Translations under genes and position numbers: made by a program
DNA from: Thiotrichaceae bacterium UBA973
GTDB lineage: Bacteria; Pseudomonadota; Gammaproteobacteria; Eutrophobiales; Eutrophobiaceae
Reading direction: 5' to 3'
Length of the DNA stretch: 64,000 nt
Assembly: GCA_002292815.1 (NCBI GenBank)
Contig: DBBX01000027.1
Location: 64,372 to 128,371 of the forward strand
Shown: positions 11,843 to 51,563 of the stretch, one piece after another
How the letters are laid out: each line of letters begins with the position of its first letter
Numbering within the stretch: the stretch's first letter is position 1
The notes under the pieces: model-generated
Databases searched by the model: none
Seen by the model: only the letters and a program-made list of their open reading frames with translations
Told to the model about the DNA's origin: nothing

Positions 11843-12562
11843 CTACAGCATTAAAATTTGTTGTACCCCATTAATATATTTAGAATATTTCGTCACTCTT
11901 AATGGGAAATGTTTAGTTATCGTATCCGCAACTGCCTCATCTTCCACATCGTACTTCAATTCCAGAATGGTAGATAACCTGTCAGATGATACGAATTTAA
12001 AAGAATTGAATCGTTCTCCTATTCGATAATTATAGAGCTGATTATCAATTGTAAGCCTGAATTTTTCACATTTAGAAAGATAATATTGGCGTGTGTAATT
12101 ATTTAGCAAGATGGGTAGAAGTAAGTCCAGATGTCGTTTTATGTTTTCTGGCAAGGCACTTTCTTTAATGTGGTTCCTAAAGTAGTCAGATGTAAAATCG
12201 CTATTTAGGGAAAAAGGCTCCAGAGAAAAATACTTTTTCCGCCCGGCAAAACCATTTTTTATTTTTAACTCCAGGACAGGGCTTGTAACTTTGCCAAAGG
12301 ATTCGCCATACCAACGAATTCGCGTTTTTAATCTTTTTGCAATACCTTCTATGTTTTCTATGACCGCATTTAGATTTCTAGTATCAAAATATATATTATT
12401 TATTATTCTTGTTGGAAACTGTCGGCAAAAACTTGCAGGATGAAGCCTGACAATGGATTCAATTTCGCTTACGGACAGTTCTCTAACTTGAAATTTTCGT
12501 TCATACCGATAGGTGTGATTACTGTCTATTTTAGTTGCTGCTTTTTCCATAAGACACACCAT
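11843..12562 (-). CDS. VTC-domain (polyphosphate-polymerase/CYTH-like) protein
   Basis: 239 aa, 'YRYERKFQV...IYFDT...' resembles bacterial VTC domain proteins (PF09359). Overlaps the upstream CotH-like gene by 32 nt, indicating translational coupling. Confidence 0.55.
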   Translation of the reverse strand: MVCLMEKAATKIDSNHTYRYERKFQVRELSVSEIESIVRLHPASFCRQFPTRIINNIYFDTRNLNAVIENIEGIAKRLKTRIRWYGESFGKVTSPVLELKIKNGFAGRKKYFSLEPFSLNSDFTSDYFRNHIKESALPENIKRHLDLLLPILLNNYTRQYYLSKCEKFRLTIDNQLYNYRIGERFNSFKFVSSDRLSTILELKYDVEDEAVADTITKHFPLRVTKYSKYINGVQQILML

Positions 12563-15188
12563 ACAGTATTTTTTCGATATTAAATTGGTCCCCTTCTATA
12601 ATATCTTCGTTAAGACTAAGCACCGATCCATATTCAATCAGACTTGTTTCCCCTTTGCCATCCGATGTAAAATTATTGATATTTATTTTCCCGGGTCCAA
12701 ATTCAGATTTTTTCTGAAAGGCAACAAAAGCCACACTACTCTTGGTTACACGTACATTATTTAGCTTAATTACAGAGTTATCTTTACTGGTAATAGCAAG
12801 CTCTGTATTACGTACATCAATATCACTGCCATTTACTATACTCGCTTCTCCCGCGCTTATACCCTTATCAGCAACACTATTCATTTGTATATGATGCATT
12901 GTGATATCAGTCCCGGATATATCAATGGCGTCATTACCAATATTCTCAAAAATTGCCTTGTAGATATTACCTTGACCAAAATCAATATCTAGCGCATCAG
13001 CTTTAATATCAGTGAACTTAAGGTGGTTCAGAGAAAACTTTGACCTAACGATATTAAGTGCATCCTCTGATTGAGTGCCGACAAAATTCACATAATCTAT
13101 CTTTGAGGGAGACTCATAAAAAGTAATCGTTCCTGATGTAGACCAGTTGTTTTGTGCAGGATGTAAAAGTGAATCAATATTAATATGCTGAAGTTGTGAT
13201 TCTCTATTGGACTTAAGCACTATCATCCCTTGTCCTGTTTTATCCGTTGTAGTTATTAATATAGGGTTATCTTTGGTACCTAGAAATCGTACCGGTGATC
13301 TTGATAAGATCACAGCATGATTATTTAGAATTAGTTCTGCCCCTGGTTGTGCTTCAAGAGTAAAGCCTTCAGGGACAATCAAATTTTCATTAATTATATG
13401 CCGCCCCTCAGGGATCGTCAGCATAATTTCGCTATTACGCTGTATAAATTTGAATAATTCGACATTTCCAACCTGCCGCATTAAATCCCCTTTAAGAGTT
13501 GCTATATCTTCATTTTTTTTCCAGGGATAAACACGAGCTGAATGAATCTTCAATAATCCAGGTCTATTATAGTTAAGGGAAAGACAGGCAGGAAAGTTAT
13601 CCAAACTTTCTAAACTAGGATCATAAGTGAAATTAATATTATGAACCATCGTAGTACTCAGTTCAGCTGGAGAAACTAGTAGTGATTGATTCTCTAGTGC
13701 AGAAAAAACGTAATCACCGCATGATAGATTTAAAATTTCTATAGGCAGCCTGTTATCGATTACCTCAACATAAATATCGAGACGATCTTCATGAGTATTA
13801 TTGAGGTATGCTTTTATTCTAACCTTGTTCAAATGTTTTGAAGCATAGTCTCGTTTTTTTATTAAAATAGTTTTGTCGAATATAAAGGCAGCCGGGCCGA
13901 AAGAAAAGACATGATCTTCTAAAGGGAACTCTGAATATATCAATCCGAGATTATGTTTGAGTTCTGCTTCTATGCTAAGTAAAAAATTTTCTAAATAATC
14001 TGGCGCGGCAAGTTTCTCTAACGCGCGAATGTATTCTCGGATGAATTCTTGATCCACTTTTCTTGGTGTGTTAAATAACTTATAAAAATATTCACGCCAA
14101 TCTTCATAGATAAAATTATTAGGAGTAATACCTCGTTCATAGGCAAAGATTGGTTTCTCCTTATTAAAGAAATTATGCCCATCAAAAGCTATCGGTTCGA
14201 GACGAGAAGTTATTGGATTATAATAATAACGGACACTTTTCGGTACCGCACCATGGTGGGTTCCCATAATGTCAGTAATCGCATAAAACATTGCAAGCTT
14301 CTTTGTGTCGAAAACTTCACCTACAGATAACCTATCATCCCTGTATCCCTCTAGAAGATTAATTGCTTTAGCTGTGACTGGCGAAAATTCAGATTTTGTC
14401 CATTTCTTTTCATTGAAAGGGGTAACTTGCATATCAGAAAAAAGATTCTCTCCTCGCGTGCTTTCATCAAAACGAATAATAGGACTATCTTTCAGTCCGT
14501 ATCTTTCTACCAGATATTTATCATAGTGTTCCTCCAGCGCGTATACTCCAAGATTCTTACCGTTTATAGAAAGATTTATAAAAATATAATTTGGGGAAAT
14601 CAATCCTTCTCTCTTGACGAGTTGCAGAAAAATCCATTCATAAATATAGTTTCGCGCCCTCGGTTTATGAAGCGAAAATGTTTTCATAGCATAAAGGGTA
14701 TTGTCTCCCTTTATTTCCACCCTAAAAGAAGCATTCGATAGACTTTCAAAATGGATCTTACGCTCACCCTTTAGTCTTATTTTTGCTTTCAATTGTTTGT
14801 TTCCTTGGGTAATCTTTACAGGCACATATTCAAATTTTTGATCCTCCGTAATGAGTGGAATAGCTTTTCTTCTCATATATTCGAGTTTTTGCATGTTAAT
14901 ATGCGATATGTCGATCGAGAGATTTTCCGCTTTATTAATTGAACCCCGAATCGCATTAATAATTGCTTCGGGATAGGTTTTAATGGATTTAGTTATCTGT
15001 AACGTTTTATTGATTTTATTCCACGCGGCATCGGATGATGTTGGATTTATATTTGCAAAAATTAATAACCCGGCGATAATAAAGAGGTTAATACAAATTA
15101 TCAGGCAGGAGAAAACATTCCAAATCTTCTGCGGTGTTCGCCCACTAACGCTTTTATTTATAAATAATGTTCCCCCCTTTAGAATCAA
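12531..15188 (-). CDS. CotH kinase-family protein with N-terminal TM anchor and C-terminal right-handed beta-helix domain
   Basis: 'IRLKGERKIHFESLSNASFRVEIKG...YAMKTFSLHKPRARNYIYEWIFLQLVKREGLISPNYIFINLSINGKNLGVYALEEHYDKYLVERYG' follows the CotH (PF08757) core pattern. N-terminal hydrophobic helix. C-terminal repetitive beta-helix-like region ('NNHAVILSRSPVRFLG...'). Confidence 0.65.
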   Translation of the reverse strand: MILKGGTLFINKSVSGRTPQKIWNVFSCLIICINLFIIAGLLIFANINPTSSDAAWNKINKTLQITKSIKTYPEAIINAIRGSINKAENLSIDISHINMQKLEYMRRKAIPLITEDQKFEYVPVKITQGNKQLKAKIRLKGERKIHFESLSNASFRVEIKGDNTLYAMKTFSLHKPRARNYIYEWIFLQLVKREGLISPNYIFINLSINGKNLGVYALEEHYDKYLVERYGLKDSPIIRFDESTRGENLFSDMQVTPFNEKKWTKSEFSPVTAKAINLLEGYRDDRLSVGEVFDTKKLAMFYAITDIMGTHHGAVPKSVRYYYNPITSRLEPIAFDGHNFFNKEKPIFAYERGITPNNFIYEDWREYFYKLFNTPRKVDQEFIREYIRALEKLAAPDYLENFLLSIEAELKHNLGLIYSEFPLEDHVFSFGPAAFIFDKTILIKKRDYASKHLNKVRIKAYLNNTHEDRLDIYVEVIDNRLPIEILNLSCGDYVFSALENQSLLVSPAELSTTMVHNINFTYDPSLESLDNFPACLSLNYNRPGLLKIHSARVYPWKKNEDIATLKGDLMRQVGNVELFKFIQRNSEIMLTIPEGRHIINENLIVPEGFTLEAQPGAELILNNHAVILSRSPVRFLGTKDNPILITTTDKTGQGMIVLKSNRESQLQHINIDSLLHPAQNNWSTSGTITFYESPSKIDYVNFVGTQSEDALNIVRSKFSLNHLKFTDIKADALDIDFGQGNIYKAIFENIGNDAIDISGTDITMHHIQMNSVADKGISAGEASIVNGSDIDVRNTELAITSKDNSVIKLNNVRVTKSSVAFVAFQKKSEFGPGKININNFTSDGKGETSLIEYGSVLSLNEDIIEGDQFNIEKILYGVSYGKSSN

Positions 15189-15877
15189 GCCAAAATCCCT
15201 TGTTGGTCAATGAATGTTATTTTGATGTTACTGTCTATATTGGTCAGTTTCTGAGTCAAGTTTTCCAAACTTTCCGTGTTATTGACTTGAGTATTAAAAG
15301 TAACCTCGATTAAGTCTGCACCGCTATCAAGCCGTCTTAAATCAACCCTGTCACAACTATTGTTAACGATGTTCACAATGGCATCAAGATTCACATTTTT
15401 TTTATCCTGGCTGCTAATTGTAATAAACATATTTGACTGAGAAAGTAATTCATCTCGGGTTATCTTCTTAAGGCCAATAATTACAAAAACAGTGAGAATG
15501 AACGATATGATGATAATTAATCTTTGATCAGCACCAAGCCCAAGCCCTATGGATATAGCAAGGAACAAATAAGTCAGCTCTTCAGGTTCTTTGATTGCCG
15601 CCCTGAAGCGAACGATAGATAGTGCGCCGACCAATCCCAATGAAAGTGCCAAGGATGACTTTACAATACTGATTACGGTCATCGTAATCATTGCTAATAG
15701 TACTAGGTTCTTGGAAAAGGATTCTCTATTTGAGAGAGAGTTCCCATAGAGTCGGTATATATGGCTAAGCACGTAAGCCAAAAAAGCAGCAAGCAAAAGG
15801 TTGACAGCAAAATTCAGAGGATCTACCTGGATACTCTGTGAGTTAAGAAAGTTTTCAAATGTGTTAGTTTTTTCCAT
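15185..15877 (-). CDS. DUF4956-like membrane protein
   Basis: 230 aa with ~4 TM helices and a soluble C-terminus. 4-nt overlap with the CotH gene. The VTC/CotH/DUF4956 trio is a recurrent gene neighbourhood. Confidence 0.45.
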   Translation of the reverse strand: MEKTNTFENFLNSQSIQVDPLNFAVNLLLAAFLAYVLSHIYRLYGNSLSNRESFSKNLVLLAMITMTVISIVKSSLALSLGLVGALSIVRFRAAIKEPEELTYLFLAISIGLGLGADQRLIIIISFILTVFVIIGLKKITRDELLSQSNMFITISSQDKKNVNLDAIVNIVNNSCDRVDLRRLDSGADLIEVTFNTQVNNTESLENLTQKLTNIDSNIKITFIDQQGILA

Positions 15878-18126: not shown

Positions 18127-20025
18127 CTATATTTTTCTAAATAAAATGATGCCGGTGGATATATAGATTGCAGTATACTTATCTACGTCTTTCCATTTAT
18201 CCAACTTAATTGTAGCGACTACATATTTTGGCAATGGGAGATTTGAGACCATTGAAGCATTACTAACACCCACATGTCTAAAACTTATATTTCTTTCACC
18301 ATTGTATCCCGCCTTTGAAAGCATCCATAAAGGGTATTCCCAACCTCCCTCATTACAATATATTCCTACAACCTTTTGCTTTTCTAATTGTAAGATACTT
18401 ATTACATTCATGAATTCTTGATAGACATCTTTTGTATTCTTGAAATAAAACTCAGCTCGATCTTTATAATACCAATCGAGAGATATTAAGGAGCGAGTTT
18501 TGTTAGCAAAAGTAAAAATCAAACCATAGCAAAACAAACATATAAGAATCACATAACTGAAGCGTTTTCCGATAGCCCTATATTCTGTTGTTGTAATTGC
18601 AATTGCAATTAATGGTGCGGCCATTGCGAATAATGGCGTGTGAAGCCTGCTTGCCCATGGTTGCCATTTTAATAAGAAGAAAAAGAGTAAAGCGCCTAGT
18701 ATTAGGCTAATAGCGTACCATGTCGTGCGATAATAATATCCCTTCAATAATAATAGTGGCAATAGAATCAGTGTGAGAAAAATAATTAGCATATGAATTA
18801 AATTCCCAGCAAAATCTTCATGCCAATTATACGGAATATAAAAAGTAGTGCCTTGCAAGGTTGTTCGAGGATTATTCAGTTGAGAACCTAGCACATCCTT
18901 CAAAGTTTTTTCCAAAACATTATTAATTAGGATTGAAGGTGTGCCTATGTGTAACGCACCATTTCTTACAGTATTCGCAAGCAAAGCGGCAGGAGACGCA
19001 TCCTCGTTATATAATTGTTTTACTTCGGTTGATAAAGGATGTCCGTACAGTTTAAAGTTGCGTGAAAAGTGTCCCGCATTCAGTACAAGAGCAATAAAGA
19101 CTATTAGCGAAAGTTTTACTACAACTTCTTGAATCCGAGCCCGATTAACGCCGCATTCTATAAATAGTGGGATAGCTAGTATTGTGCCTACGGCAGCACA
19201 ATATATATAGGCTGTACCTTTAGTCATAAGCGCTAACCCCAACGCAATGGTTCCAAAGAGAATATTTTCAAAACTAAAATTTCTTTGAATGCGAAGCATG
19301 AATAATGCAAAAGACATTATAAAACTAGATACAACCAAATCATTTTGTGTACTCGAAGCCTGTAGTACTCCCATCGGTAAAGTCGCAATAATAAATGCTG
19401 TTATTAGCTGCTGTCTTTTATCAAGACCTAGTTCAGCAGCAATAACAAAACCAAGGCAAACAATCACAAGAAAGCTGACCCACTGAACGAGATTTGCATA
19501 CCAGTCTGAACCTGTTAAAACCTGTAAATGCATAATTGCAAACTCTGCAAGCGGTGCTAAGTAATTCTGTCTCGTAATCGAGGTAGGATAAAATGATACA
19601 TCGTTGTTATTTATCCAATGTACCACTCGAGACATATGATAAGTCATTGAGTCCGAGGTATTAGGTGGATGCAAGATAGCGGTTAAAAATGTTGCTGCCA
19701 AAATCAAAACTATCGCTGCTGTAAGAAGATAGGTTTGAGAAGAATACTCATGCGCTTCCTGAATTTTTAATACTTCAGTGTTCCGAAACTTTGAAATGAT
19801 AGCTAACAAAGAAATGAAGAATAGAACCCACATTATTAATACACACGAAAAAGAAATACTATTAATTGCTGATAGAAATTCTGTCGAAATTAAAATGAAT
19901 GTAAAAACCACTAGATGTGCTTTGATTAATGCTTCTAAGATAGTTTCCACTTTCAGTTGTCGCGTGAAAACAATCATCAGTGCAATATATGAACTTACAG
20001 GTAAAAGTAACAGCGAGAAACTCAT
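18127..20025 (-). CDS. GT-C fold polytopic membrane glycosyltransferase (same unassigned subfamily as 5231-7012), 632 aa
   Basis: More than 11 TM helices. First-loop 'SDSMTYHMSRVVHW' parallels 'PDSFYHAVRI' of the 5231-7012 protein. Soluble C-terminal domain. Confidence 0.45.
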   Translation of the reverse strand: MSFSLLLLPVSSYIALMIVFTRQLKVETILEALIKAHLVVFTFILISTEFLSAINSISFSCVLIMWVLFFISLLAIISKFRNTEVLKIQEAHEYSSQTYLLTAAIVLILAATFLTAILHPPNTSDSMTYHMSRVVHWINNNDVSFYPTSITRQNYLAPLAEFAIMHLQVLTGSDWYANLVQWVSFLVIVCLGFVIAAELGLDKRQQLITAFIIATLPMGVLQASSTQNDLVVSSFIMSFALFMLRIQRNFSFENILFGTIALGLALMTKGTAYIYCAAVGTILAIPLFIECGVNRARIQEVVVKLSLIVFIALVLNAGHFSRNFKLYGHPLSTEVKQLYNEDASPAALLANTVRNGALHIGTPSILINNVLEKTLKDVLGSQLNNPRTTLQGTTFYIPYNWHEDFAGNLIHMLIIFLTLILLPLLLLKGYYYRTTWYAISLILGALLFFFLLKWQPWASRLHTPLFAMAAPLIAIAITTTEYRAIGKRFSYVILICLFCYGLIFTFANKTRSLISLDWYYKDRAEFYFKNTKDVYQEFMNVISILQLEKQKVVGIYCNEGGWEYPLWMLSKAGYNGERNISFRHVGVSNASMVSNLPLPKYVVATIKLDKWKDVDKYTAIYISTGIILFRKI

Positions 20026-21502: not shown

Positions 21503-23671
21503 TCAATGAATTAATGATAACTTATCATTAACCCTGTCTTCCCAACGACCACTTGTTAATGATTCAAACGTAATAAGATTGGATAATTTCCCAATATCAT
21601 TTAAATATGACCACACTTTCCCACCATTAGTATAATCAATTGCTAAATATGGAATATTTAATGTTTCAGAAAAGACTACGGAATGGTACCTTGTGCAGAT
21701 ATTCAGTTTACTACCTAACATATTTTTAATGATTGAATCTGCTGAATGTATTTTATTATCATTTATGACGTTGCTATCTTTAAAATACTTATCGCATAAC
21801 ATTCTATTGAATTGTCTATCATCACCCCCAACCACAAATGTATGCATTGGTAATAAATGAGGGGTTAAACCAGTTTTCTTGCTAATAGATTTAACAATTT
21901 CAGATAATTGATTTTCATACATACTTTTTACATTATCAACATCCACGTGTGATTCATCTAAAACATATTCATTTGGTAAATCCCTTAAAAAACAACAAAA
22001 TTTATTGCCATTTTCTTCTGCTATTAATGTATTTTTCCTTGTCCTTACATAGTTTATAGCTGGATCTTGAATTAATTGTGCATCTACTCTCTTCTCATTT
22101 TCATAGATCCAGTTCAATGAAGCTGCATCCCTAACCCGAACCACACTAGCTAAGCGAACAATTTCTTTAACTGCATCACTATATCTACTTCCTATGAGCG
22201 GCCCTATTCCGCAACCTTCCAGTACGGTTATAGATCCTGATTTTTGGCCTAAAATAAATGCCTGCATTATTACGCCGAGTGTTTCAATATGCATCAGCGG
22301 CCCACCACCCATCATAATCACATCGGCATCAACACACGCTTTACTATATTCCTCTGAATATGTATCAATGATTACTTCATTTACACATCCTAATTCCTGC
22401 AGTGTTTTTTTTGTTACAAATGGATATAAGCTGGCGATAGAAATAATTATTTTATTATTATGATTTTTAATATTTCTAATTATTTCTGCCAGAATTGCTT
22501 TGTCTCCTACTGTTTCAGTCCCATACCATCCTACTATTAATACTCGTTTTATATCCAACCAATCTATTGCACATGGAATAGCAGATACGCATGCAATAGA
22601 TTTAGGCATTAACACATCAATATTAAATTTATTAATATAACTGTTTTTTTGTTTAACCTGAACAAGAGAACTTAATTTTGGAAACGCATGATAATCATGT
22701 ACACAACTATCACAATTATCTTTAATGATATTATTTCGAATATCTATATTAGACTTATATAGATCGAGAGCTGAGTTTTCACTACATGAACCAATAACAG
22801 GAGATTTTGGTGAACAATATATTAAATCGCCTCTGCAATCCAATACGACTGCATTAATTTGGTAGGGACATCCTGACTGGCGTTTTTTCCCCTCAAATAT
22901 CATTTTCCTGATATTTGAGTATGTTTCTTTTACACTAATGTCTTTTTCATATGTATGTTCTAGTTTAAAGAAAAATAAAGCGATATTATATTTTTCATCA
23001 TCATCAAAATTTTTTATAGATGCATTAAGATCTTCGTTATAGAGCCTATCAATAAATTCCGCCACGCGGAATTTTGCATATATATCGTTCTGAATACAAA
23101 AATCTAAAACGTCATCTACATACCATACGTTTTCTTTAACTATAGTACAGCCTATACTCAGCGGTATATTTGCATTATTTTTAACATGATTAATGACCTG
23201 TAGGGCGCTCTCAAAATTACCTTCTCTAGACCTAACCTCATCATGAACATGACCTACGCCATCTAAAGACACCATTACATTAAAATTTACATTTTCTTTA
23301 GCACATACAGCTTCACAATCATCAATTTGCTTTATAACTTTCTGCGTCTGTATTGCATTTGTTATTATTCCAATTGACTCTGTCCCTTCTTTTTTAGCGA
23401 ACACTTGAACAATATCTGGCAAATCATCACGTAGCGTAGGCTCTCCACCAGATATTCCAACATTAGAAAGGTTCTTAAATAAATCATCGTTTAATATATT
23501 CTCTAGTTCTTCTGGTGTAAGCTCCTTATCTTTTTTTCTCTTCCAAATGTTACACATCTTACATTTTGAATTACATATATCATTAGCCATAAAATTCAGG
23601 GTTACTGGATATCTTAATATCTTCTTATCAAGATATTCTTTGATTGAATATTTAATTCGTCTATAAATCAT
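21503..23671 (-). CDS. radical SAM/SPASM-like domain fused to polysaccharide pyruvyl transferase (CsaB/WcaK-like) domain
   Basis: N-terminal CxxxCxxC 'CNSKCKMC' followed by 'GISGGEPTL'. Cys-rich auxiliary-cluster region ('SGCPYQ...LDCRGDLIYC...GSCS...DNCDSC') at residues ~270-330. C-terminal 'TRYHSVVFSETLNIPYLAIDYTNGGK' matches the pyruvyltransferase 'TRLH...YdpK' motif. Confidence 0.6.
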   Translation of the reverse strand: MIYRRIKYSIKEYLDKKILRYPVTLNFMANDICNSKCKMCNIWKRKKDKELTPEELENILNDDLFKNLSNVGISGGEPTLRDDLPDIVQVFAKKEGTESIGIITNAIQTQKVIKQIDDCEAVCAKENVNFNVMVSLDGVGHVHDEVRSREGNFESALQVINHVKNNANIPLSIGCTIVKENVWYVDDVLDFCIQNDIYAKFRVAEFIDRLYNEDLNASIKNFDDDEKYNIALFFFKLEHTYEKDISVKETYSNIRKMIFEGKKRQSGCPYQINAVVLDCRGDLIYCSPKSPVIGSCSENSALDLYKSNIDIRNNIIKDNCDSCVHDYHAFPKLSSLVQVKQKNSYINKFNIDVLMPKSIACVSAIPCAIDWLDIKRVLIVGWYGTETVGDKAILAEIIRNIKNHNNKIIISIASLYPFVTKKTLQELGCVNEVIIDTYSEEYSKACVDADVIMMGGGPLMHIETLGVIMQAFILGQKSGSITVLEGCGIGPLIGSRYSDAVKEIVRLASVVRVRDAASLNWIYENEKRVDAQLIQDPAINYVRTRKNTLIAEENGNKFCCFLRDLPNEYVLDESHVDVDNVKSMYENQLSEIVKSISKKTGLTPHLLPMHTFVVGGDDRQFNRMLCDKYFKDSNVINDNKIHSADSIIKNMLGSKLNICTRYHSVVFSETLNIPYLAIDYTNGGKVWSYLNDIGKLSNLITFESLTSGRWEDRVNDKLSLIH

Positions 23672-23764: not shown

Positions 23765-24958
23765 TTAATTCAAGCTCCATTCGCCATTTAACTGAACTGG
23801 AGCCATTCCAACAAAACATCCTTTAACCGATAATAATTTAGCTGCAAAATGTTGCGATAACACCTCTATTCTGGCTTCGTCCATTATTGATACTGACATG
23901 TAATAATTGCCAGGATTAAGATTCAAAGCAGGAAGTAAGATATTTATATCTATCTTTTTACCAATATTATTAATTTTCACTTTGTTAAACGATGAATCAC
24001 ATTGCGCAACTACTTCCATGAGGTGGTTTAAAATCAAGATGCAACAAACAGGGTTTAGTTTGGATTTATCTATAGAAACTTCAATATGTATATTGACATT
24101 ATCAAGATAATCAAACTCAACTGACGATTTCCCATTAACACTCACATCAATTCTATCAATAGTAGCCTTGCCATTTCCGGTAATAGATTTTTTTGTCTTA
24201 TCGAACAAGGATGTATATACATTGATTCCTTTTGGTATATCCTGACCATAAAAAACTATATTGCCTTTATCTAGCACACATAATTTATTTGCTACTCTGG
24301 CAATCTGAGGAATGGAATGAGAAACAAAAATTATGACTGTATTTTCATAAATCTCGCGTATTCTATTAAAACATTTTGCATTGAAACCAATATCGCCAAC
24401 AGCTAAAACTTCATCCACAATTAAAACATCTGGTTCCATCTGAACTGCTATAGAAAAGCCAAGTCTGGTTTTCATGCCTGAGCTATAACTCGCTACTGGT
24501 GTATCTAAAAATTCTCCGATTTCTGAAAACTCAACTATTGCGTCAAATTTATCCTGAATCTCCTTTTTACTCAGCCCTAGCATAGCGCCATTAATGAATA
24601 TATTTTCTCTCCCTGTAAGCACTGGATTAAAACCAGCCGCTAATTCAATCATGGCGCATACTCTACCTCTTATTTCTATTCTTCCTTGGTCTGGTTTAAT
24701 TAAACCGTTCAATAATTTCAATAACGTGCTTTTGCCCGCTCCGTTACAGCCAATTAACCCAAGACACTCTCCTCTTTTAAGATTAAATGAAATATTATTT
24801 ACTGCCCAAAACTCATCATCCCTTAGTCTATTATTCTCTGATGAATCTATTTTTAGTTCCTTGTAAATATCATTAAGCCCATACCACAATGATTTTTTTA
24901 AATCTTTGCAGAATTTTTTGGATACCCCGTCTACAACAACAAGCTCATCATTTTTCAT
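23765..24958 (-). CDS. wzt: O-polysaccharide ABC transporter ATP-binding protein Wzt with C-terminal carbohydrate-binding domain
   Basis: Walker A 'GCNGAGKST', signature 'YSSGMKTRLGFSI', Walker B 'LIVDE'. Extra ~150 aa C-terminal beta-rich domain, as in Wzt proteins that recognise a capped glycan terminus. Confidence 0.8.
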   Translation of the reverse strand: MKNDELVVVDGVSKKFCKDLKKSLWYGLNDIYKELKIDSSENNRLRDDEFWAVNNISFNLKRGECLGLIGCNGAGKSTLLKLLNGLIKPDQGRIEIRGRVCAMIELAAGFNPVLTGRENIFINGAMLGLSKKEIQDKFDAIVEFSEIGEFLDTPVASYSSGMKTRLGFSIAVQMEPDVLIVDEVLAVGDIGFNAKCFNRIREIYENTVIIFVSHSIPQIARVANKLCVLDKGNIVFYGQDIPKGINVYTSLFDKTKKSITGNGKATIDRIDVSVNGKSSVEFDYLDNVNIHIEVSIDKSKLNPVCCILILNHLMEVVAQCDSSFNKVKINNIGKKIDINILLPALNLNPGNYYMSVSIMDEARIEVLSQHFAAKLLSVKGCFVGMAPVQLNGEWSLN

Positions 24959-25975: not shown

Positions 25976-26521
25976 CTATTCCAACTCAGATTCCCACAAC
26001 AGCACTCTGGGTTTTTGCATAAATAACTTATCCATGTTTTTAAATTCATCTTCAGTTAATACCAACGTTCGTATTTTCCTAGCTATGTATTTTTCCGTCT
26101 TTTTAACAAGATCTTGGAGACTTTCAAGGTCGATATCGCCAACTAATAACAAATCCACCAGCCCCGTATCTTTACCTTGTGCATAATCATCAATTAAATA
26201 CGCCTGCTTTAGGTTGCCCAAACGTTCCAGAATACTTTCAAGGATCTGATCCATGCCTAAGGCTTTCTTGACCATCGAATGAAGCTCGGGGAATAAAGGA
26301 TGTTCAGTATTAGCACGATAATTAATTTGCCTGCCTGACTTGCTGCTGTTTAACAAACCTGCATCACTTAATTGCTGCAATTCACCTGAAACTTGACTGG
26401 GAGATACACTAAAATCATCAGATAATTCACGTAAATATGCCTGTTGATCCGGATTTAGAAACAAACGCATCAATATCTTAATACGTGTTTTTGAGGCAAT
26501 AAGTGAAGATAGAATCGACAT
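25976..26521 (-). CDS. winged-helix transcriptional regulator (ArsR/MarR-like N-terminus, extra C-terminal domain)
   Basis: N-terminal 'TRIKILMRLFLNPDQQAYLRELSDDFSVSPSQVSGELQQLSDAGLL' is a wHTH pattern. Sits inside the glycosylation array. Preceded by a perfect 17-bp inverted repeat. Confidence 0.5.
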   Translation of the reverse strand: MSILSSLIASKTRIKILMRLFLNPDQQAYLRELSDDFSVSPSQVSGELQQLSDAGLLNSSKSGRQINYRANTEHPLFPELHSMVKKALGMDQILESILERLGNLKQAYLIDDYAQGKDTGLVDLLLVGDIDLESLQDLVKKTEKYIARKIRTLVLTEDEFKNMDKLFMQKPRVLLWESELE

Positions 26522-26526: not shown

Positions 26527-26567
26527 ATCCGCTATTATGTTCTATTAATTAGAACATAATAGCGGAT
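26527..26567. promoter_or_regulatory. perfect 17-bp inverted repeat (ATCCGCTATTATGTTCT-N7-AGAACATAATAGCGGAT) overlapping the RBS region just upstream of the regulator start codon
   Basis: Read directly: 26527-26543 is the exact reverse complement of 26551-26567. Located 6 nt from the ATG (26521-26519) of the wHTH regulator gene. Confidence 0.6.
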
Positions 26568-28818: not shown

Positions 28819-30693
28819 TTAAGGAACATTTAGCAGTTTGAGCTGCTGCTCAGCGTTTTTATATAGAATAGCGTCATTATGTAACTTCAACAAAACGTAT
28901 TCAAAATCTTTTTTTGCTTGTGGTTGATTTCCAATATTTAAGTGAGAAAGACCACGATAATATATAGAGTCAATATGACCTGGATTAGCAAGATTAACCT
29001 TTGTCAATAATTTAATCGCCATATTAAATTCATTTAATGAAAAATAACTTATGCCAAGATAGTAATTTGCTTTTTCATGTTCTGGATAATCTTTAATAAT
29101 TGCCTGAAAATCATTTTTTGCCATATCCACGTTGCCAAGATTATTATTAGCAACCCCTCTATTTAACAAGACTTCAATATTATTAGGTGCCTTGAGCAAC
29201 GCAGAATTTAAATCCTCGATTGCGCCATTTAAATCTCCCAAATAAATTCTAGCTGACGCTCTTCCATTTAAAGCATAGGCATTATTCTCGTCTAGTTGTA
29301 GAACTGAAGAATAATCCTCAATGGCTTTGTTGTACCATTTTTTCTTCATTCTGTAATCGGCTCTGTTGCTAAGAGCTCTGTAATTTGATTTATCAACATT
29401 TATTGCATGTGACCACAATGTTTCCTCATTTTCCCATATTAAGATTTGTCTTTTCGTACTGTTTACTAATGCACATAATATAATTACGTATACTAGTAGC
29501 ATAGAAAACAGTAGCATTATTTTTTTATTTTTTTCTTGTTTAAAACTTATTCTCAATCCTTTTAAGGTCATATAGCTCAAAACAAAATAAAACGGCATTA
29601 AAGCAATGTAGGCATACCGATCTGCCATTATCTGTGGGCCACTTTGGGAAAAACCGAGAACCGGAAAGATAATCACTAAATAAATTAGCAAAAAATATAA
29701 TGGCCAATGATATTTTTTTCTTATCAGAAATGCAGTTACAAATACGAATATAAAAACAAAGAAATGCGCATAAAACTTAATATCATAAAAATTCGTTTTC
29801 CCTAACAAATATAATGGCGATAAATTTGAAGGATATAATGTATTCAATAAATACATATTAAAACCGTAACTTGCCTGCAGAATTCTATCTACCAGAGTTA
29901 ATTTTTCCCAAGAAACCATCGCTCCTGATGTATTCGCCGCAAAGACACCTATCAATGCAAATAAGAAAGATATAATGATAAATGGGATCTTGGTTTTTAT
30001 ACTATTCATCATAAAGGCAACTGTGGGCTTCGTGGAATTAAGAATTGCTATATCTACTAGAACTAACACCACAGGAAAAGTAATTGCCCATGCCTTACAT
30101 AACAATGACAGGAAAAAAGAACAAAAAGAAATAATATATAATTTCTTCTTAAATATATTACTTGATGCGAGTACTTCTTTATGAAACCTGAAATGTAGAT
30201 ATGCAAGAAAACTTATTAACAAAAATAATGCACTGAAGACATCTCTTCTTTCAGTCACCCATACGACAGACTCTACTCTTAATGGGTGTAATGAAAAAAT
30301 TGATGCCCCAACTAGAGATGATATTATTAAATTTAAATTATTCGAAGATAATTTATTAAACAATCTTAAAGCCGAATAGATCACCAGCATTAACAGCACA
30401 GCATTAATACTGTGCAGTAATATATTAGTTAACCTGTAACCATAACTTTCCAGACCCCAGACATGGTAATTCATGATGAAAGACAACCATGTTAATGGTT
30501 GATAATGACCACCCAGAGTGTTCGTAAATGCCCAAAGCATGCTATTAAAGCTAAACGACCTGATATGCTCGTTATTAACAATAATTTCTCGATCATCCCA
30601 TACAAAATCGTACCCTAATGACGACTTAAAAATAAAAAACGCCAAACAAAATAAAATAGTGCTAGAGAGAAGAGTAATGGATTTTGTTTTCAC
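28819..30693 (-). CDS. GT-C glycosyltransferase with C-terminal TPR repeats (TMTC/TfpW-like), paralog 2
   Basis: 624 aa. ~11 TM helices with first-loop 'GYDFVWDDREII' (DD acidic motif). C-terminal ~200 aa of TPR-like repeats ('AYALNGRASARIYLGDLNGAIEDLNSALLKAPNN...'). Confidence 0.6.
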   Translation of the reverse strand: MKTKSITLLSSTILFCLAFFIFKSSLGYDFVWDDREIIVNNEHIRSFSFNSMLWAFTNTLGGHYQPLTWLSFIMNYHVWGLESYGYRLTNILLHSINAVLLMLVIYSALRLFNKLSSNNLNLIISSLVGASIFSLHPLRVESVVWVTERRDVFSALFLLISFLAYLHFRFHKEVLASSNIFKKKLYIISFCSFFLSLLCKAWAITFPVVLVLVDIAILNSTKPTVAFMMNSIKTKIPFIIISFLFALIGVFAANTSGAMVSWEKLTLVDRILQASYGFNMYLLNTLYPSNLSPLYLLGKTNFYDIKFYAHFFVFIFVFVTAFLIRKKYHWPLYFLLIYLVIIFPVLGFSQSGPQIMADRYAYIALMPFYFVLSYMTLKGLRISFKQEKNKKIMLLFSMLLVYVIILCALVNSTKRQILIWENEETLWSHAINVDKSNYRALSNRADYRMKKKWYNKAIEDYSSVLQLDENNAYALNGRASARIYLGDLNGAIEDLNSALLKAPNNIEVLLNRGVANNNLGNVDMAKNDFQAIIKDYPEHEKANYYLGISYFSLNEFNMAIKLLTKVNLANPGHIDSIYYRGLSHLNIGNQPQAKKDFEYVLLKLHNDAILYKNAEQQLKLLNVP

Positions 30694-40334: not shown

Positions 40335-41206
40335 TGGCAATTTTAATCGACAAAAACACTAAAGTAATTGTGCAAGGTTTTACCGGTCGTCAAGGTACAT
40401 TCCATTCAGAACAAGCCATTGAATACGGAACACAACTAGTTGGTGGCGTTACTCCTGGGAAGGGTGGTGAAAAACATCTGAACAAGCCTGTGTTTGATAC
40501 GGTTACAGACGCAGTAAATGAAACTGGGGCTAATGCAAGCATGATTATGGTACCGCCTGCATTCGCAGCAGAAGCGATAACAGAAGCTGCAGAAGCCGGA
40601 ATTAATATCATCGTCTGTATCACTGAAGGCATACCAGTATTAGACATGGTTAAGGCAAGAGCTTATGTTGACCAATTTCCAGAGATAAGACTTGTTGGGC
40701 CTAACTGTCCCGGCGTCATTACGCCTGGCCAATGCAAGATAGGCATAATGCCAGGCAGTATTCATAAAGTTGGCAGTATCGGCGTAGTTTCACGCTCAGG
40801 AACACTGACCTACGAAGCGGTTCATCAAACCACAATGAACGGACTTGGACAAAGTACTTGTGTGGGTATTGGCGGCGATCCTATTAATGGCACGAACTTC
40901 ATTGATTGCTTGGCGTTATTTCAAGAAGATCCTGATACGAAAGGTATCATAATGGTTGGTGAGATAGGTGGCACAGCAGAAGAAGAAGCAGCACAGTTTA
41001 TTAAGGATAATGTTACTAAACCTGTCGTTGGCTACATCGCTGGCGTCACTGCCCCGCCCGGAAAAAGAATGGGCCATGCTGGCGCTATTATTTCAGGAGG
41101 GAAAGGGACTGCCGATGATAAATTTGCCGCTCTTGATGAAGCAAATGTTAAAACTGTTCGCTCACCAAGTGAACTAGGAACTGCCATTGCATCCATAATG
41201 CCCTAG
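40334..41206 (+). CDS. sucD: succinyl-CoA ligase alpha subunit
   Basis: '[18 protein letters not shown]...GGVTPGKGG'. Overlaps the sucC stop. Confidence 0.9.
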
Positions 41207-41255
41207 CCTTTTATCAAGGATTAATATATCTACCCTAAACTTGAACACATCTTTT

Positions 41256-41282
41256 ATCTGCTTGTTATTTTAACAAGCAGAT
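41256..41282 (+). terminator. hairpin downstream of sucD (11-bp stem ATCTGCTTGTT/AACAAGCAGAT, TTTT loop), weak T-tract
   Basis: Perfect inverted repeat read directly. The following T-run is interrupted, so it is only a moderate intrinsic-terminator candidate. Confidence 0.4.
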
Positions 41283-41320
41283 AAAATCAGTTTCTAGGCT
41301 TTTAGTTAGATCATGAAAAC

Positions 41321-42955
41321 ATGTCTGCAAATCAACTGCATATTATACTAGCTCAATTAAACCTTACCGTTGGCGATCTTGAGGGTAATACAAAAAAAAT
41401 AATTGCGTCTATAGATACTGCTTGTTCAACTTATAACGCTGACATAATTATTTTCCCAGAACTCACTATTAGTTCTTACCCGCCAGAAGATTTACTATTA
41501 AGACCTGCTTTCCTAGACACTACGAGAAAAGCACTAGATGAAATTATAACTGCTACAAATAACATTCATGTACTAATCGGTTATCCCTGTTTACATGAAG
41601 GTGAGCTATACAATGCTTGCAGCCTTATTAAAAACAAAAAAATATTACAAACCTATTTCAAACAAAACTTGCCGAACTACGGTGTGTTCGATGAAAAACG
41701 TTATTTCAAGAAAGGAACCGAACATTGCTTGTTTGACATTAATGGTATTAAAGCAGCAATAAGTATCTGCGAAGATGTCTGGGTACCAGAGTTCACTCAA
41801 GAGATTGCAGCCGCAGGAGCGCAACTTTTATTTAATATGAATGCATCGCCCTATCATAAAAACAAGTTATCACAACGAGAAGAAATAATTTCAAAACAAG
41901 CTTTGAACTCAGGTTTGTATATCGTCTATACCAACCTAGTAGGCGGCCAAGACGAACTCGTGTTTGATGGCAACTCAATGATTATTGATAATCATGGCAA
42001 ACGTATTTTCCATGCACCACAATTTATAGAAGGCTTATACAGTACTACATTAGATTTAGAGTGCCCGAATAATCATAAACTAAATAATGTATATACTGCG
42101 CCATCAAACGAGGAAGAGAATATATACAACGCACTTGTCCTTGGCGTAAAAGATTACGTAAGAAAGAATAACTTTAAAGGAGCGCTTATTGGTCTATCAG
42201 GCGGAATCGATTCAGCACTCACTCTCAGCATTGCTGTCGATGCTTTAGGATCTAAAAATGTTGAAGTATTGATTATGCCTTCGCGCTATACCGCAGACAT
42301 GAGTAATGAAGATGCCTGTCTACAAGCAAAAATGCTTAATGTTGATTATGAAATAATTTCTATTGAACAACCTTTTGAAGCTTTGCTAAAAGCACTAGAA
42401 CCTCGTTTTAAAGATTTACCTACCGACACTACAGAAGAAAATATTCAGGCCCGTTGTAGAGGCATTTTACTCATGGCGGTTTCCAATAAAAGTGGAAAGA
42501 TAGTTTTAACAACCGGAAACAAAAGTGAAATGGCTGTTGGTTATGCCACGCTCTATGGTGATATGGCGGGCGGCTATGCGCCACTCAAAGACGTATGGAA
42601 AACGCTGGTCTACCGACTCGCAAAATGGCGTAATACGCAACAAGCTGTAATACCAGAAAGAGTCATCGATAGACCCCCTACAGCCGAGCTACGTCATGAT
42701 CAACTGGATCAAGACTCACTGCCTGATTATGAGATTCTGGATCCTATTCTTGAGCAATATATAGAGCTTGATAGGCATCCGAAAAAAATTATTGCCGCAG
42801 GCTATGATGCAGACGCTGTATATAAACTTATTGCTCTGGTAGATAGAAATGAATATAAGCGTAGACAAGCAGCGCCAGGAGTCAGAATAACTGAAAGGGC
42901 TTTTGGCAGAGATCGCCGTTATCCTATTAGTTCGGGTTATACAGAAAATAAATGA
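41321..42955 (+). CDS. nadE: glutamine-dependent NAD+ synthetase
   Basis: 544 aa. N-terminal CN-hydrolase (nitrilase) domain + C-terminal NAD synthetase with 'GLSGGIDSAL' PP-loop motif. Confidence 0.85.
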   Translation: MSANQLHIILAQLNLTVGDLEGNTKKIIASIDTACSTYNADIIIFPELTISSYPPEDLLLRPAFLDTTRKALDEIITATNNIHVLIGYPCLHEGELYNACSLIKNKKILQTYFKQNLPNYGVFDEKRYFKKGTEHCLFDINGIKAAISICEDVWVPEFTQEIAAAGAQLLFNMNASPYHKNKLSQREEIISKQALNSGLYIVYTNLVGGQDELVFDGNSMIIDNHGKRIFHAPQFIEGLYSTTLDLECPNNHKLNNVYTAPSNEEENIYNALVLGVKDYVRKNNFKGALIGLSGGIDSALTLSIAVDALGSKNVEVLIMPSRYTADMSNEDACLQAKMLNVDYEIISIEQPFEALLKALEPRFKDLPTDTTEENIQARCRGILLMAVSNKSGKIVLTTGNKSEMAVGYATLYGDMAGGYAPLKDVWKTLVYRLAKWRNTQQAVIPERVIDRPPTAELRHDQLDQDSLPDYEILDPILEQYIELDRHPKKIIAAGYDADAVYKLIALVDRNEYKRRQAAPGVRITERAFGRDRRYPISSGYTENK

Positions 42956-43729
42956 TTATTTAACGACTTCTATTTCCTTCACTTCATAAAGCCCGGGATG
43001 ATTAGGGTAATTCAGTTCTAGCACACGTAACGCATCATTGGAAAGATCATCCATCTCCAGTACTCGGTAGGCCTTGGCCATAACAACTAAGGCATCAGGA
43101 ACAGATGGTGTCTTGGGGTAATTTTCTATCACATACCTGCCCCTGTTAACAGCTGCGACGAATGCCCCTCGACGCATATAATAATTAGCGACATGCACCT
43201 CATTTTTTGCCAGGATATTTCGTAAATAACGCATCCGCTTTGCTGAATCTGCTACATACTGGCTTTCGGGAAACCGTTTAACAAGCTCAGAAAATTCCTG
43301 GAAGGCACTAAAAGCTGCACCCGGGTCACGTTGAGATTCATCTGTAGGCATATAACGCTGCATCATGCCCTTGCCTCGATTAAAGTGCGTCAAACCTTTT
43401 AGGTAATAGGTATAATCGACGTGTGCATTTTGAGGGTATAATTTAATAAATCGATTACATGCTGCAATTGCAGCATCCGGTTCTTCATTCTTGTAATGAG
43501 CAAAAGCTAAATCCATTAATGCTTGTTGCGCATGGACACCGAATGGGAATCTGGTCTCTAATTTTTGATAATACTCGACTGCCTTATCAAATGAGCCAGA
43601 GTCCAGTTCTCCCCTTGCCTCAGTATAGAGTCGATCAGCATCCCAAGCAGCAGTATCATCGCCCTTATCTTTGAAATGAGAACAGCCTGAAATTATAAAA
43701 ATCAGTAAAAATATTATTGAATGTCGCAT
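42956..43729 (-). CDS. bamD: outer membrane protein assembly factor BamD (YfiO lipoprotein)
   Basis: Lipoprotein signal 'LIFIISGCSHF'. TPR-like repeats. Conserved bamD-rluD-pgeF neighbourhood. Confidence 0.8.
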   Translation of the reverse strand: MRHSIIFLLIFIISGCSHFKDKGDDTAAWDADRLYTEARGELDSGSFDKAVEYYQKLETRFPFGVHAQQALMDLAFAHYKNEEPDAAIAACNRFIKLYPQNAHVDYTYYLKGLTHFNRGKGMMQRYMPTDESQRDPGAAFSAFQEFSELVKRFPESQYVADSAKRMRYLRNILAKNEVHVANYYMRRGAFVAAVNRGRYVIENYPKTPSVPDALVVMAKAYRVLEMDDLSNDALRVLELNYPNHPGLYEVKEIEVVK

Positions 43730-43768
43730 AGACTGTAGGTTAGCTCAAACCCATCTTGAGGGCAAAGC

Positions 43769-44722
43769 TTGAAACATATGCCTAAACTTCAATTACAAAT
43801 AATCATACCGGAAGAACTCGCAGGCAGACGTCTGGATCAAGCGCTTTCTCAACTAGTCCCCGAACATTCACGTTCAAGGATCCAATCATGGATTAGGGCT
43901 GGAGATGTGAGCGTCAATAAATCAACCTATAAACAACGGACTGAAGTACACAACGGTGACATTATTGAAATAAATACTGAAATTAACAACATCGATAAGC
44001 ACCAGGCCGAAGCAATCAATTTAACTATTCTGCATGAAGACGAGTCTTTAATTATTATTAACAAACCTGCTGGACTGATCGTCCATCCTGGCGCAGGAAA
44101 TCCTAACCACACATTAGTTAATGCCTTGTTGAATTTTGACGAAAACCTTGACGCTATTCCACGAGCGGGGATCATTCATCGTCTTGATAAAGACACCACG
44201 GGGGTGTTAGTTGTTGCACGAACACTTGAAGCGCATACGAGTTTAGTCGATCAACTTCAAAAACGAGATATAAAGCGTCAATACCAAGCGATAGTCTGTG
44301 GTCAACTCACCTCCGGTGGCTCTATTGAAAACAAGATGGGGCGCCACCCGAAACAACGGATTAAAATGGCTGTGACGAATAACGGGAAAATAGCGACTAC
44401 GCACTATAGGATACTCAAGAAATATCAACATTACACGCACCTACATGTGCAACTGGAAACAGGGCGTACACATCAAATACGCGTTCACATGTCTCATATT
44501 AAACACCCAATAGTTGGTGACCCGGTGTATGGAAATAATAAATCTATTCGAAAGGGGGTAGATTCATCACTTCGTGATTTCATCCTTAATTTTAATCGCC
44601 AAGCTTTGCATGCCTTTTCACTTGAACTAACTCATCCTGAAAGCAAGCAAGAAATGAAGTTTATTGCGGAATTACCCAACGATATAAAATCGTTAATCGA
44701 TGCTTTAAATAGTTATGACTAA
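43769..44722 (+). CDS. rluD: 23S rRNA pseudouridine synthase RluD
   Basis: S4 domain N-terminus. 'HRLDKDTTGVLVVA' catalytic Asp motif. 317 aa. Confidence 0.85.
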   Translation: MKHMPKLQLQIIIPEELAGRRLDQALSQLVPEHSRSRIQSWIRAGDVSVNKSTYKQRTEVHNGDIIEINTEINNIDKHQAEAINLTILHEDESLIIINKPAGLIVHPGAGNPNHTLVNALLNFDENLDAIPRAGIIHRLDKDTTGVLVVARTLEAHTSLVDQLQKRDIKRQYQAIVCGQLTSGGSIENKMGRHPKQRIKMAVTNNGKIATTHYRILKKYQHYTHLHVQLETGRTHQIRVHMSHIKHPIVGDPVYGNNKSIRKGVDSSLRDFILNFNRQALHAFSLELTHPESKQEMKFIAELPNDIKSLIDALNSYD

Positions 44723-45458: not shown

Positions 45459-45522
45459 TAGAAATATTAGACTAAGCTTTATTTAATATATAAGAACTGA
45501 ATTAATCATCAGGGGAAGAAAA

Positions 45523-46950: not shown

Positions 46951-46971
46951 ATTAAGTCATTATGTTTTTTC

Positions 46972-47003: not shown

Positions 47004-47029
47004 TTCTCTTAGCGATATCCTCAATAACA

Positions 47030-51558: not shown

Positions 51559-51563
51559 CTATT

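Follow-up and report, generated by a model that had tools for sequence, protein, structure and literature searches.

Results and discussion

A radical SAM–pyruvyltransferase fusion beside wzm and wzt

The window analysed here, a stretch of 64,000 nucleotides (nt) of contig DBBX01000027.1 from Thiotrichaceae bacterium UBA973 (assembly GCA_002292815.1, positions 64,372 to 128,371 of the forward strand), carries a gene for a single polypeptide of 722 amino acids (aa) in which a radical S-adenosylmethionine (SAM) domain is joined to a polysaccharide pyruvyltransferase (PvT) domain. The open reading frame (ORF) starts with ATG and is flanked by genes for a Wzm/Wzt-type ABC transporter and a family 4 glycosyltransferase (GT4; Table 1). 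A sequence-only reading had already described a 722-aa ORF adjoining wzm/wzt, and the ORF list and the translation agreed with it on both points. It had, however, placed the gene upstream of wzt/wzm. In fact, the fusion gene lies directly downstream (3′) in the direction of transcription: its start is found 93 nt 3′ of the wzt stop codon, and all three genes reside on the minus strand. A frameshift or misassembly artefact was ruled out by hundreds of independent full-length homologues. Marine metagenome contigs hold exact copies of the fusion, and the ClpB protein encoded in the window is 82–94% identical to proteins of uncultured marine Gammaproteobacteria.

The N-terminal half: a predicted radical SAM enzyme with a twitch-type domain

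The N-terminal half matched the Pfam family Radical_SAM (PF04055) with 65.2 bits over residues 31–192 (cut-off 29.5), far beyond chance. Both motifs that had been singled out in the sequence-only reading were recovered, namely the CX3CX2C motif (C33, C37 and C40 in CNSKCKMC, residues 33–40, nt 23552–23575) and the GGE motif GISGGEPTL (residues 72–80, nt 23432–23458). Conservation was assessed in an alignment of 32 full-length fusion homologues with 41–65% identity, to which all statements about invariant residues refer. The three cysteines as well as G75-G76-E77-P78-T79 are invariant, and so are the arginines R147, R202, R209, R264 and R312 and an additional cysteine, C175, which was placed at the end of a barrel strand in an AlphaFold2 (AF2) model. 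An N-terminal domain devoid of SAM-binding motifs, which would have spoken against radical chemistry, was therefore not what the profile analysis revealed. None of the radical SAM models of NCBIfam reached its cut-off, the best being the PTO1314 family (78 vs 306); HpnH was found among the profile matches as well. A Foldseek search with the modelled N-terminal half returned SkfB, BlsE, CteB, SuiB, viperin, anSME, MoaA and EpeE as nearest structures at 15–18% sequence identity. The probability was 1.00 for SkfB, BlsE, anSME, MoaA and viperin, consistent with a partial TIM-barrel fold. Motifs and model thus combine all features expected of an active radical SAM enzyme, and we predict that the N-terminal half is one.

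The radical SAM core is followed by a cysteine-rich segment that had been described as a SPASM/twitch-type auxiliary domain with seven cysteines within about 60 residues. Our count was lower: the densest 60-residue window (264–323) contains six cysteines (C268, C279, C286, C296, C320 and C323), and only C268, C286, C320 and C323 are invariant. They form the conserved pattern C268-X12-G281-X4-C286 ... C320-X2-C323-HDYH. The canonical seven-cysteine SPASM motif, CX9-15GX4C-gap-CX2CX5CX3C-gap-C, binds two auxiliary clusters, while the twitch domain is a truncated SPASM domain with one cluster; in BtrN and SkfB, cysteines are located before and after a β-hairpin and two more follow the next helix (PMC6231123). 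The AF2 model of the fusion, evaluated by DSSP, displays the same order, with C268 before and C286 just after a hairpin (strands 274–277 and 282–285) and C320/C323 at the end of helix 309–322. The isolated segment matched the Pfam SPASM model in register, yet below the threshold (13.1 bits, E 0.13, cut-off 21.5). The CX5CX3C…C part of the seven-cysteine motif is missing in all 32 aligned members, where CX2C is followed by the invariant HDYH and no more conserved cysteines. Because only four cysteines are invariant, we assign the segment to the one-cluster twitch type. The earlier proposal of an Fe–S-type cysteine domain was thus retained, whereas a full SPASM domain was not, and nothing in the model suggested that the segment fails to fold as an Fe–S domain. 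Judging from alignment and model, one auxiliary Fe–S cluster should find all of its ligands in the four invariant cysteines. A fully cysteine-ligated auxiliary cluster is present in BtrN and anSME, where it is the proposed electron acceptor in oxidation (PMC6231123).

The C-terminal half: a predicted pyruvyltransferase

The C-terminal half had been likened to CsaB/WcaK-type pyruvyltransferases on account of the motifs TRYH…PYLAIDYTNGGK. We located them at residues 660–663 and 674–685, respectively, and obtained a match to Pfam PS_pyruv_trans (PF04230) of 74.8 bits that spans residues 389–681 and model positions 3–279 of 280 (cut-off 25.3), which substantiates this assignment. CsaB is the closest named PvT, yet the score against its NCBIfam equivalog model (TIGR03609, 90.9 bits vs a cut-off of 213.1) indicates that the fusion is not a CsaB orthologue. 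Foldseek matched the C-terminal half to the pyruvyltransferase Pvg1p (5ax7, E 1.2e-6), the GT-B enzyme 1v4v and further GT-B folds. The residues GWYGTETxGDKA (381–392), GGGPLM, GCGxGP, R514xxxS518, R661xH663S and DYTxGGK685 are invariant. The signatures NxGD, Rxxx(S/T) and His are known from WbbZ, and R148, H308 and K328 of CsaB are critical for binding phosphoenolpyruvate (PEP). Their counterparts in the fusion would be T387xG389D390, R514xxxS518, H663 and K685, all of them invariant, the sole change being the replacement of Asn by an invariant Thr (T387). The register of these motifs was set by profile matches together with motif order and spacing, not by structural superposition, since searching the PDB at the sequence level with the PvT half yielded noise only. 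Altogether, these data suggest a PEP-dependent pyruvyltransferase of GT-B-like fold in the C-terminal half, which retains the residues that WbbZ, Pvg1p and CsaB use for PEP binding and catalysis.

The AF2 model of the entire fusion is compact and of high confidence (predicted local distance difference test, pLDDT, 90.7; predicted template-modelling score, pTM, 0.90), and it resolves the two domains that the sequence-only reading had expected such a model to reveal. A pTM of 0.90 in a two-domain protein of 722 residues implies a fixed domain interface, and we take this modelled interface as a hint that both active sites may work on one substrate. The halves are connected by a helical linker. 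It coincides with the site at which they are encoded by separate genes in a natural split form (L091, 5001–7222) with the gene order wzm-wzt-rSAM(381 aa)-PvT(359 aa)-GT4, where rSAM denotes the radical SAM half and its stop codon overlaps the start of the PvT gene in the sequence ATGA.

Table 1. Coordinates of the fusion gene, its domains and adjacent genes in the window
Feature	Position (nt)	Strand	Basis
Radical SAM/twitch-pyruvyltransferase fusion, entire gene	21503..23671	minus	ORF list, translation, PF04055 and PF04230 above cut-off, AF2
Radical SAM core, residues 22-260	22892..23608	minus	Pfam, alignment, Foldseek
Twitch-type auxiliary-cluster domain (predicted), residues 264-330	22682..22882	minus	Invariant Cys, AF2 topology
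Helical linker, residues 331-374	22550..22681	minus	DSSP helices 333-348, 351-360
Polysaccharide pyruvyltransferase (PvT) domain, residues 375-700	21572..22549	minus	Pfam, motifs, Foldseek
Partner GT4 glycosyltransferase, 418 aa	20108..21364	minus	Pfam Glycos_transf_1; starts 138 nt past fusion
Wzt ABC-transporter ATPase, 397 aa	23765..24958	minus	Pfam ABC_tran 86.5 bits
Wzt_C carbohydrate-binding domain, Wzt residues 246-397	23768-24223	minus	Pfam Wzt_C 41.1 bits, cut-off 30.4
Wzm-like ABC-2 permease, 282 aa	24962..25810	minus	NCBIfam galactan_ABC_perm Wzm/RfbD 41 bits, sub-threshold
Dual-module GT4-GT2 protein, 675 aa	16082..18109	minus	Pfam Glycos_transf_1 196-349, Glycos_transf_2 396-519

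A conserved module with one glycosyltransferase and an exporter

In seven Pfam-annotated loci from six lineages, a GT4 of about 400–418 aa always follows the fusion and Wzm/Wzt usually precedes it. In non-redundant loci fetched from reference genomes, orthologues of the GT4 of the window (at least 140 bits) were separated from other GT4 proteins of the same loci (at most 60 bits). Among loci with at least 3 kb of downstream sequence, the orthologue is directly adjacent to the fusion in 55 of 73 and lies within 3 kb in 12 more. Wzt is encoded within 3.5 kb upstream on the same strand in 53 of 71 loci for which at least 3 kb upstream are available, and a C-terminal extension of 144–225 aa is present in 60 of 61 Wzt proteins from related loci. 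In about 80% of the loci, the fusion occurs together with a Wzm/Wzt exporter whose ATPase bears a carbohydrate-binding extension. The permease of the window has about five hydrophobic segments according to its hydropathy profile, and its homologues in related loci contain PF01061.

Pairwise distances of the fusion correlate with those of GT4 (r = 0.72, Mantel p ≤ 0.0005) and to a lower degree with those of the Wzt ATPase domain (r = 0.45); controlling for Wzt left a partial correlation of 0.66 between fusion and GT4. A census of neighbour families in 84 loci did not reveal another universal partner, be it a sugar-nucleotide enzyme or a reductant. Apart from GT4, Wzt and Wzm, every neighbour family (RmlB-like proteins, sulfotransferases, methyltransferases, acetyltransferases) occurs in at most 20 of these loci. 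Comparative genomics thus shows that the fusion and one specific GT4 of the retaining type form a working unit, and the conserved module is Wzm, Wzt with a carbohydrate-binding extension, the rSAM-PvT fusion and this GT4.

The partner GT4 itself exhibits a four-cysteine motif, C146-X5-C152-X6-C159-X2-C162, which follows HDMN within residues 146–162 and is shared by about 53% of 64 orthologues. It probably represents a structural metal site that is optional. A role as redox partner or family feature was rejected, as only about 53% of the orthologues possess it.

Distribution and natural variants of the family

The fusion had been considered unusual, but database searches did not bear this out. 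A word-indexed search, in which 8000 candidates were scored, yielded 1241 clusters (90% identity) at E ≤ 1e-3; each of the best 120 aligns with about 96% of the query and contains both Pfam domains. In an exhaustive search of 50%-identity representatives, 419 were found at E ≤ 1e-30, and among the top 150 almost every match extends over both halves. A pattern scan with one genome per species confirmed the fusion in at least 135 species, that is, in less than 0.1% of 185,579 species. Carriers belong to at least nine phyla (Thermodesulfobacteriota, Chloroflexota, Bacteroidota, Verrucomicrobiota, Planctomycetota, Cyanobacteriota, Acidobacteriota, Pseudomonadota and Bacillota), with alpha, gamma and zeta lineages represented in Pseudomonadota. 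Many are aerobes or oxygenic phototrophs, and culturable carriers exist among cyanobacteria, Bacteroidota, Alteromonas and Paenibacillus, for instance Synechocystis sp. PCC 6714, Pedobacter helvus and Alteromonas abrolhosensis PEL67E. The family is large, widespread, patchily distributed and uncharacterised. Database entries are labelled 'radical SAM protein', 'polysaccharide pyruvyl transferase family protein' or, once, 'SkfB'. A 2019 review of glycan pyruvylation nowhere mentions a radical SAM fusion. Papers on Xanthomonas proved to be word matches only, the radical SAM genes described there being unrelated to the wzm/wzt cluster.

Some relatives are considerably larger than the fusion of the window. 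In locus L011 (1095–6678), a single open frame that spans 1861 aa or more encodes rSAM-PvT-GT4-TPR-GT2-GT2-GT2, where TPR stands for tetratricopeptide repeats and GT2 for family 2 glycosyltransferase modules; a short N-gap at about residue 885 does not interrupt the frame. The rSAM-PvT-GT4 unit is likewise joined in P0121, P0153, P0195, P0197, P0207, P0208 and P0175, the last being 3783 aa long. In most of these proteins TPR repeats come next, and P0175 and P0207 comprise further transferase domains. Natural fusions of the type rSAM-PvT-GT4-TPR-(MT)-GT2 thus unite a methyltransferase (MT) and several GT2/GT4 modules in giant polypeptides, which (in L011, P0175, P0207, P0208, P0197 and P0121) look like all-in-one polysaccharide synthases. 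Other members are reduced: the rSAM half of P0264 and P0265 is degenerate and lacks the cysteine motifs, while their PvT half is intact. Variants P0194 and P0270/P0272 comprise one internally deleted form and, in one genome, a gene split into pieces of 170 and 359 aa. Proteins of about 455 aa (P0188, P0219, P0237, P0242, P0248) that seemed to represent an alternative 'twitch + PvT' architecture were rejected, because four of them start at the near-invariant Met257, as a gene caller would choose on a truncated contig; the start of P0242 lies slightly downstream of Met257.

A regulator gene and further genes of the glycan cluster

The wzm-wzt-fusion-GT4 block is headed by a gene for an ArsR/HTH_5-type regulator (181 aa, 25976–26521, minus strand), which also precedes wzm in two metagenome copies of the locus (L001, L002). 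Six nt upstream of its start, we observed a perfect inverted repeat (26527–26567) with 18-bp arms and a 5-nt loop, which is probably the operator of this regulator. The repeat overlaps the best minus-strand promoter-like site (26583→26556). A scan for promoters and terminators gave a result no better than that for shuffled sequence. The G+C content of the glycan cluster (approximately 8000–36000) is 29–36%, compared to 38–43% in the flanking housekeeping region (38000–52000; ClpB and others), a contrast typical of a horizontally exchanged surface-polysaccharide island.

The dual-module GT4-GT2 protein is a candidate for the polymerising glycosyltransferase of the cluster. It is also kept in the closest, 65%-identical relative (L004). 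Between the partner GT4 and this protein, a GT-C-like membrane protein of 632 aa is encoded (18127–20025, minus strand), which has some 11 hydrophobic segments and matches PMT_2 only weakly, below the threshold; PMT_2 proteins occur near the fusion in other phyla, too (L008, L010). The glycan cluster further includes a trio of minus-strand genes (11843–15877) for a CotH kinase-like protein of 885 aa, a membrane protein with DUF4956 (230 aa) and a protein of 239 aa, the L004 homologue of which has a VTC (polyphosphate polymerase-type) domain. The trio is kept in the closest relative.

A type IV pilin gene (32925–33398) lies within the cluster as well, with genes for PilS/PilR at 35996–38928. 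The interval from pilR to the pilin gene holds two minus-strand genes that are kept in L004 as well, one for a methyltransferase-GT2 fusion (479 aa, 33666–35105) and one for a separate methyltransferase (35197–35943). The pilin gene is followed on the minus strand by genes for two proteins of 634 and 624 aa (30826–32730 and 28819–30693) with 7–9 hydrophobic segments each, an N-terminal loop motif (FIYDDYF or FVWDDRE) and, at the C-terminus, a TPR or helical domain. Such a GT-C/TMTC-like architecture suggests glycosylation of a periplasmic protein, possibly the pilin. The 634-aa protein had no match in Pfam or NCBIfam. The pilin side of L004 is arranged similarly but lacks the TPR gene.

Proposed function

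The domain assignments and the conserved surroundings of the fusion make it very probable that the predicted two-domain enzyme is active and serves a glycan pathway together with GT4. Its product is probably a decoration of a cell-surface polysaccharide. With PEP as source, pyruvyltransferases attach pyruvate to a sugar diol on the cytoplasmic side, and a mimic of a lipid-diphosphate-linked disaccharide serves CsaB as acceptor. In analogy, GT4 would attach a sugar to an undecaprenyl-diphosphate-linked glycan at the cytoplasmic face of the membrane, and the PvT domain would convert a diol of this sugar into a pyruvate ketal with PEP as donor. The rSAM domain would cleave SAM to generate a 5′-deoxyadenosyl radical that abstracts a hydrogen atom from the same residue and thereby introduces a second modification. 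A coupling of radical chemistry with pyruvylation on one sugar, as envisaged in the sequence-only reading, is plausible and would agree with the conserved module and the confident packing of the domains. An oxidation or epimerisation of the sugar is our tentative and rather doubtful suggestion for this step. It is favoured because a fully cysteine-ligated cluster and the extra invariant C175 would fit a BtrN/anSME-type oxidation or a thiol-assisted epimerisation. In the radical epimerases NeoN and EpeE a cysteine serves as hydrogen donor, a role that C175 might play here.

The modified residue is a putative terminal cap or export tag, an assumption to which we assign somewhat less than an even chance. 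The O antigen modified by WbbZ is ABC-exported and receives a terminal 3,4-pyruvate at its non-reducing end, and in vitro the enzyme halts polymerisation prematurely. By the same token, a modified residue at the non-reducing end could stop elongation, and the carbohydrate-binding domain of Wzt could read this end ahead of export, just as the carbohydrate-binding module (CBM) of Wzt reads the terminal epitope in terminated systems (PMC11231755). The complete proposal, a bifunctional glycan-tailoring enzyme that equips a GT4-added sugar with a ketal and a radical-derived modification and plausibly caps the chain end, is in our estimate evenly poised between right and wrong.

Alternative explanations

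Several observations weigh against the proposal of a capping enzyme. The nature and order of the radical step are derived from analogy only, and our literature search found no paper on the fusion or any member of its family. The transporter of WbbZ itself has no CBM and does not need the cap, and a coiled-coil 'molecular ruler' is a hallmark of classical polymerase-terminator systems (PMC11231755). A crude scan for long heptad-like segments free of Pro and Gly did not detect such a ruler in the fusion, GT4 or other soluble proteins of the cluster; in the giant relatives, TPRs follow GT4 in place of a coiled coil. Although 56 of 61 Wzt C-terminal domains formed one single-linkage cluster, they are related only loosely: the median domain matches about 13 of the other 60, which makes a shared ligand uncertain. 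Of the 65 loci covering at least 12 kb, 12 encode neither Wzt nor a recognised flippase and one encodes a Wzx flippase, so the module is not tied to a single export route. The decayed rSAM half of P0264 and P0265 implies that the radical step is dispensable for some glycans. In a serious rival model, the same enzyme and GT4 would modify an internal or side-branch sugar in every repeat unit, as an ordinary decoration without any cap. Most known pyruvylations occur on repeat units, CsaB acts on a repeat-unit precursor, and such a role would accord with the roughly 20% of loci without Wzt, the Wzx gene directly upstream of one fusion, the divergent Wzt C-terminal domains and the apparent lack of a ruler. 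On the other hand, only fusion and GT4 are conserved while the other glycosyltransferases differ, which is expected of a common cap or primer but not of a part of the repeat unit, and the associated Wzt proteins carry a CBM-sized extension with a single exception. Moreover, the giant fusions contain rSAM-PvT-GT4 at one end and TPRs before the GT2 modules, similar to terminator-polymerase proteins. We consider repeat-unit decoration possible, albeit rather unlikely.

Three further explanations appear less likely. The conservation of the fusion-GT4 pair amid variable glycosyltransferases would also suit a reducing-end primer or adaptor of the lipid-linked glycan that is extended by different polymerases, and pyruvylation close to the lipid has a precedent in the lipid-diphosphate-linked disaccharide used by CsaB. 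A ketal, however, blocks two acceptor hydroxyls, which is awkward for extension, no initiating phosphoglycosyltransferase is conserved beside the pair, and the near-universal CBM of Wzt would be left unexplained, as the systems studied so far read the non-reducing terminus (PMC11231755). We thus regard a primer as highly improbable. The rSAM half might instead act on the pyruvate-derived group or an enolpyruvyl intermediate rather than on the sugar ring, so that another substituent would result, for example a 1-carboxyethyl (lactyl) ether via radical ring-opening, a decarboxylated acetal or an adenosylated adduct. The covalent fusion and the confident packing of the halves (pTM 0.90) suggest that one intermediate is handed over, BlsE, the second-best structural neighbour, is a radical decarboxylase of a sugar carboxylate, and the profile matches include HpnH, an enzyme that attaches 5′-deoxyadenosyl to a C=C bond. 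To our knowledge, no genes have been assigned to the synthesis of the lactyl-ether sugars of cyanobacterial and marine bacterial polysaccharides, and both groups carry the family. The invariant arginines of the rSAM half would suit an anionic substrate, but they could equally bind undecaprenyl diphosphate. The idea is pure chemical analogy, the structural neighbours share only 15–18% identity, and we judge it improbable. Still a little less probable is its extension that the rSAM half rewrites the pyruvate adduct of its own PvT half, by hydrogen abstraction beside the ketal oxygen and radical ring-opening to a lactyl ether, or else by decarboxylation or adenosylation, to give a chain-end export tag that would be installed together with GT4, read by the carbohydrate-binding domains of Wzt and common to at least nine phyla. 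Finally, the rSAM half could be a non-catalytic Fe–S module, either structural or for redox/oxygen sensing, that regulates an ordinary pyruvyltransferase. The degenerate proteins P0264 and P0265 and the many aerobic or phototrophic carriers could be read in this way. Yet the GGE and CX3CX2C motifs, the twitch cysteines and numerous residues of the barrel do not vary among members from at least nine phyla with 41–65% overall identity, which is the pattern of an active site and not of a sensor, and radical SAM enzymes such as BioB, LipA and MoaA work routinely in aerobes. This last explanation is the least likely of all.

Significance and comparison with known systems

The family offers a compact and testable entry point, comprising a two-domain enzyme, an obvious partner glycosyltransferase and exporter, and culturable carriers. 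Once solved, the reaction would reveal how O-antigen-like or capsule-like polymers acquire a new sugar modification and would correct the automatic annotations 'radical SAM protein', 'pyruvyl transferase' and, in one case, 'SkfB'. If the modified residue is indeed a cap, it would constitute a new chain-termination and export signal in ABC-transporter-dependent glycan synthesis.

With the pyruvyltransferases CsaB (Paenibacillus alvei), WbbZ (Klebsiella pneumoniae O1), Pvg1p (Schizosaccharomyces pombe), WcaK and WcfO, the fusion shares the PF04230 domain, the GT-B-like fold and the location in a polysaccharide locus. In particular, its C-terminal half has the xGD and Rxxx(S/T) motifs and the His and Lys residues that were shown to bind PEP or to be essential in known PvTs. 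WbbZ likewise functions in an ABC-transporter-dependent pathway, where it caps chain ends. The characterised enzymes are, however, single-domain proteins of about 300–400 aa without a radical SAM domain, and the Asn of their NxGD motif is replaced by Thr in the fusion.

The rSAM half resembles the twitch enzymes BtrN (an aminocyclitol dehydrogenase), SkfB and MoaA in its CX3CX2C motif and a truncated SPASM domain arranged around a hairpin and a helix. BtrN has a fully ligated cluster, and the fusion also provides four cysteines. SkfB and the sugar-acting BlsE are the best matches in both sequence and structure. Unlike these enzymes, with which it shares 15–18% identity, the rSAM half is fused to a transferase, and its substrate is presumably a lipid-linked glycan rather than a peptide, nucleotide or aminocyclitol. 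The SPASM enzymes anSME, PqqE, CteB and SuiB belong to the same branch of the superfamily and share the first four of seven cysteines with the fusion, and anSME, CteB and SuiB were recovered as structural matches; the CX5CX3C…C part that serves the second cluster is lacking in the 32 aligned members.

A third parallel concerns bifunctional chain terminators of ABC-transporter-dependent O-antigen synthesis such as the kinase-methyltransferase WbdD (Escherichia coli O9a/K. pneumoniae O3), WbbB and those of K. pneumoniae O4/O7. As in these systems, the gene directly follows wzm-wzt, the protein has two catalytic domains, and Wzt contains a C-terminal carbohydrate-binding domain. Relatives of the fusion also occur as giant polypeptides with a helical-repeat spacer and several glycosyltransferase modules. 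Differences are the coiled-coil ruler, which our crude scan did not detect, and the predicted combination of a PEP-derived ketal with a radical step in place of phosphate/methyl or 3-deoxy-D-manno-octulosonic acid (Kdo) groups. Cofactors, RNA, peptides and antibiotics are well-known fields of radical SAM chemistry, and our literature search did not uncover a role of radical SAM enzymes in the assembly of bacterial surface polysaccharides. What is new here is the conserved Wzm-Wzt(CBM)-[rSAM-PvT]-GT4 module, in which a glycan pyruvyltransferase comes with a built-in radical SAM partner.

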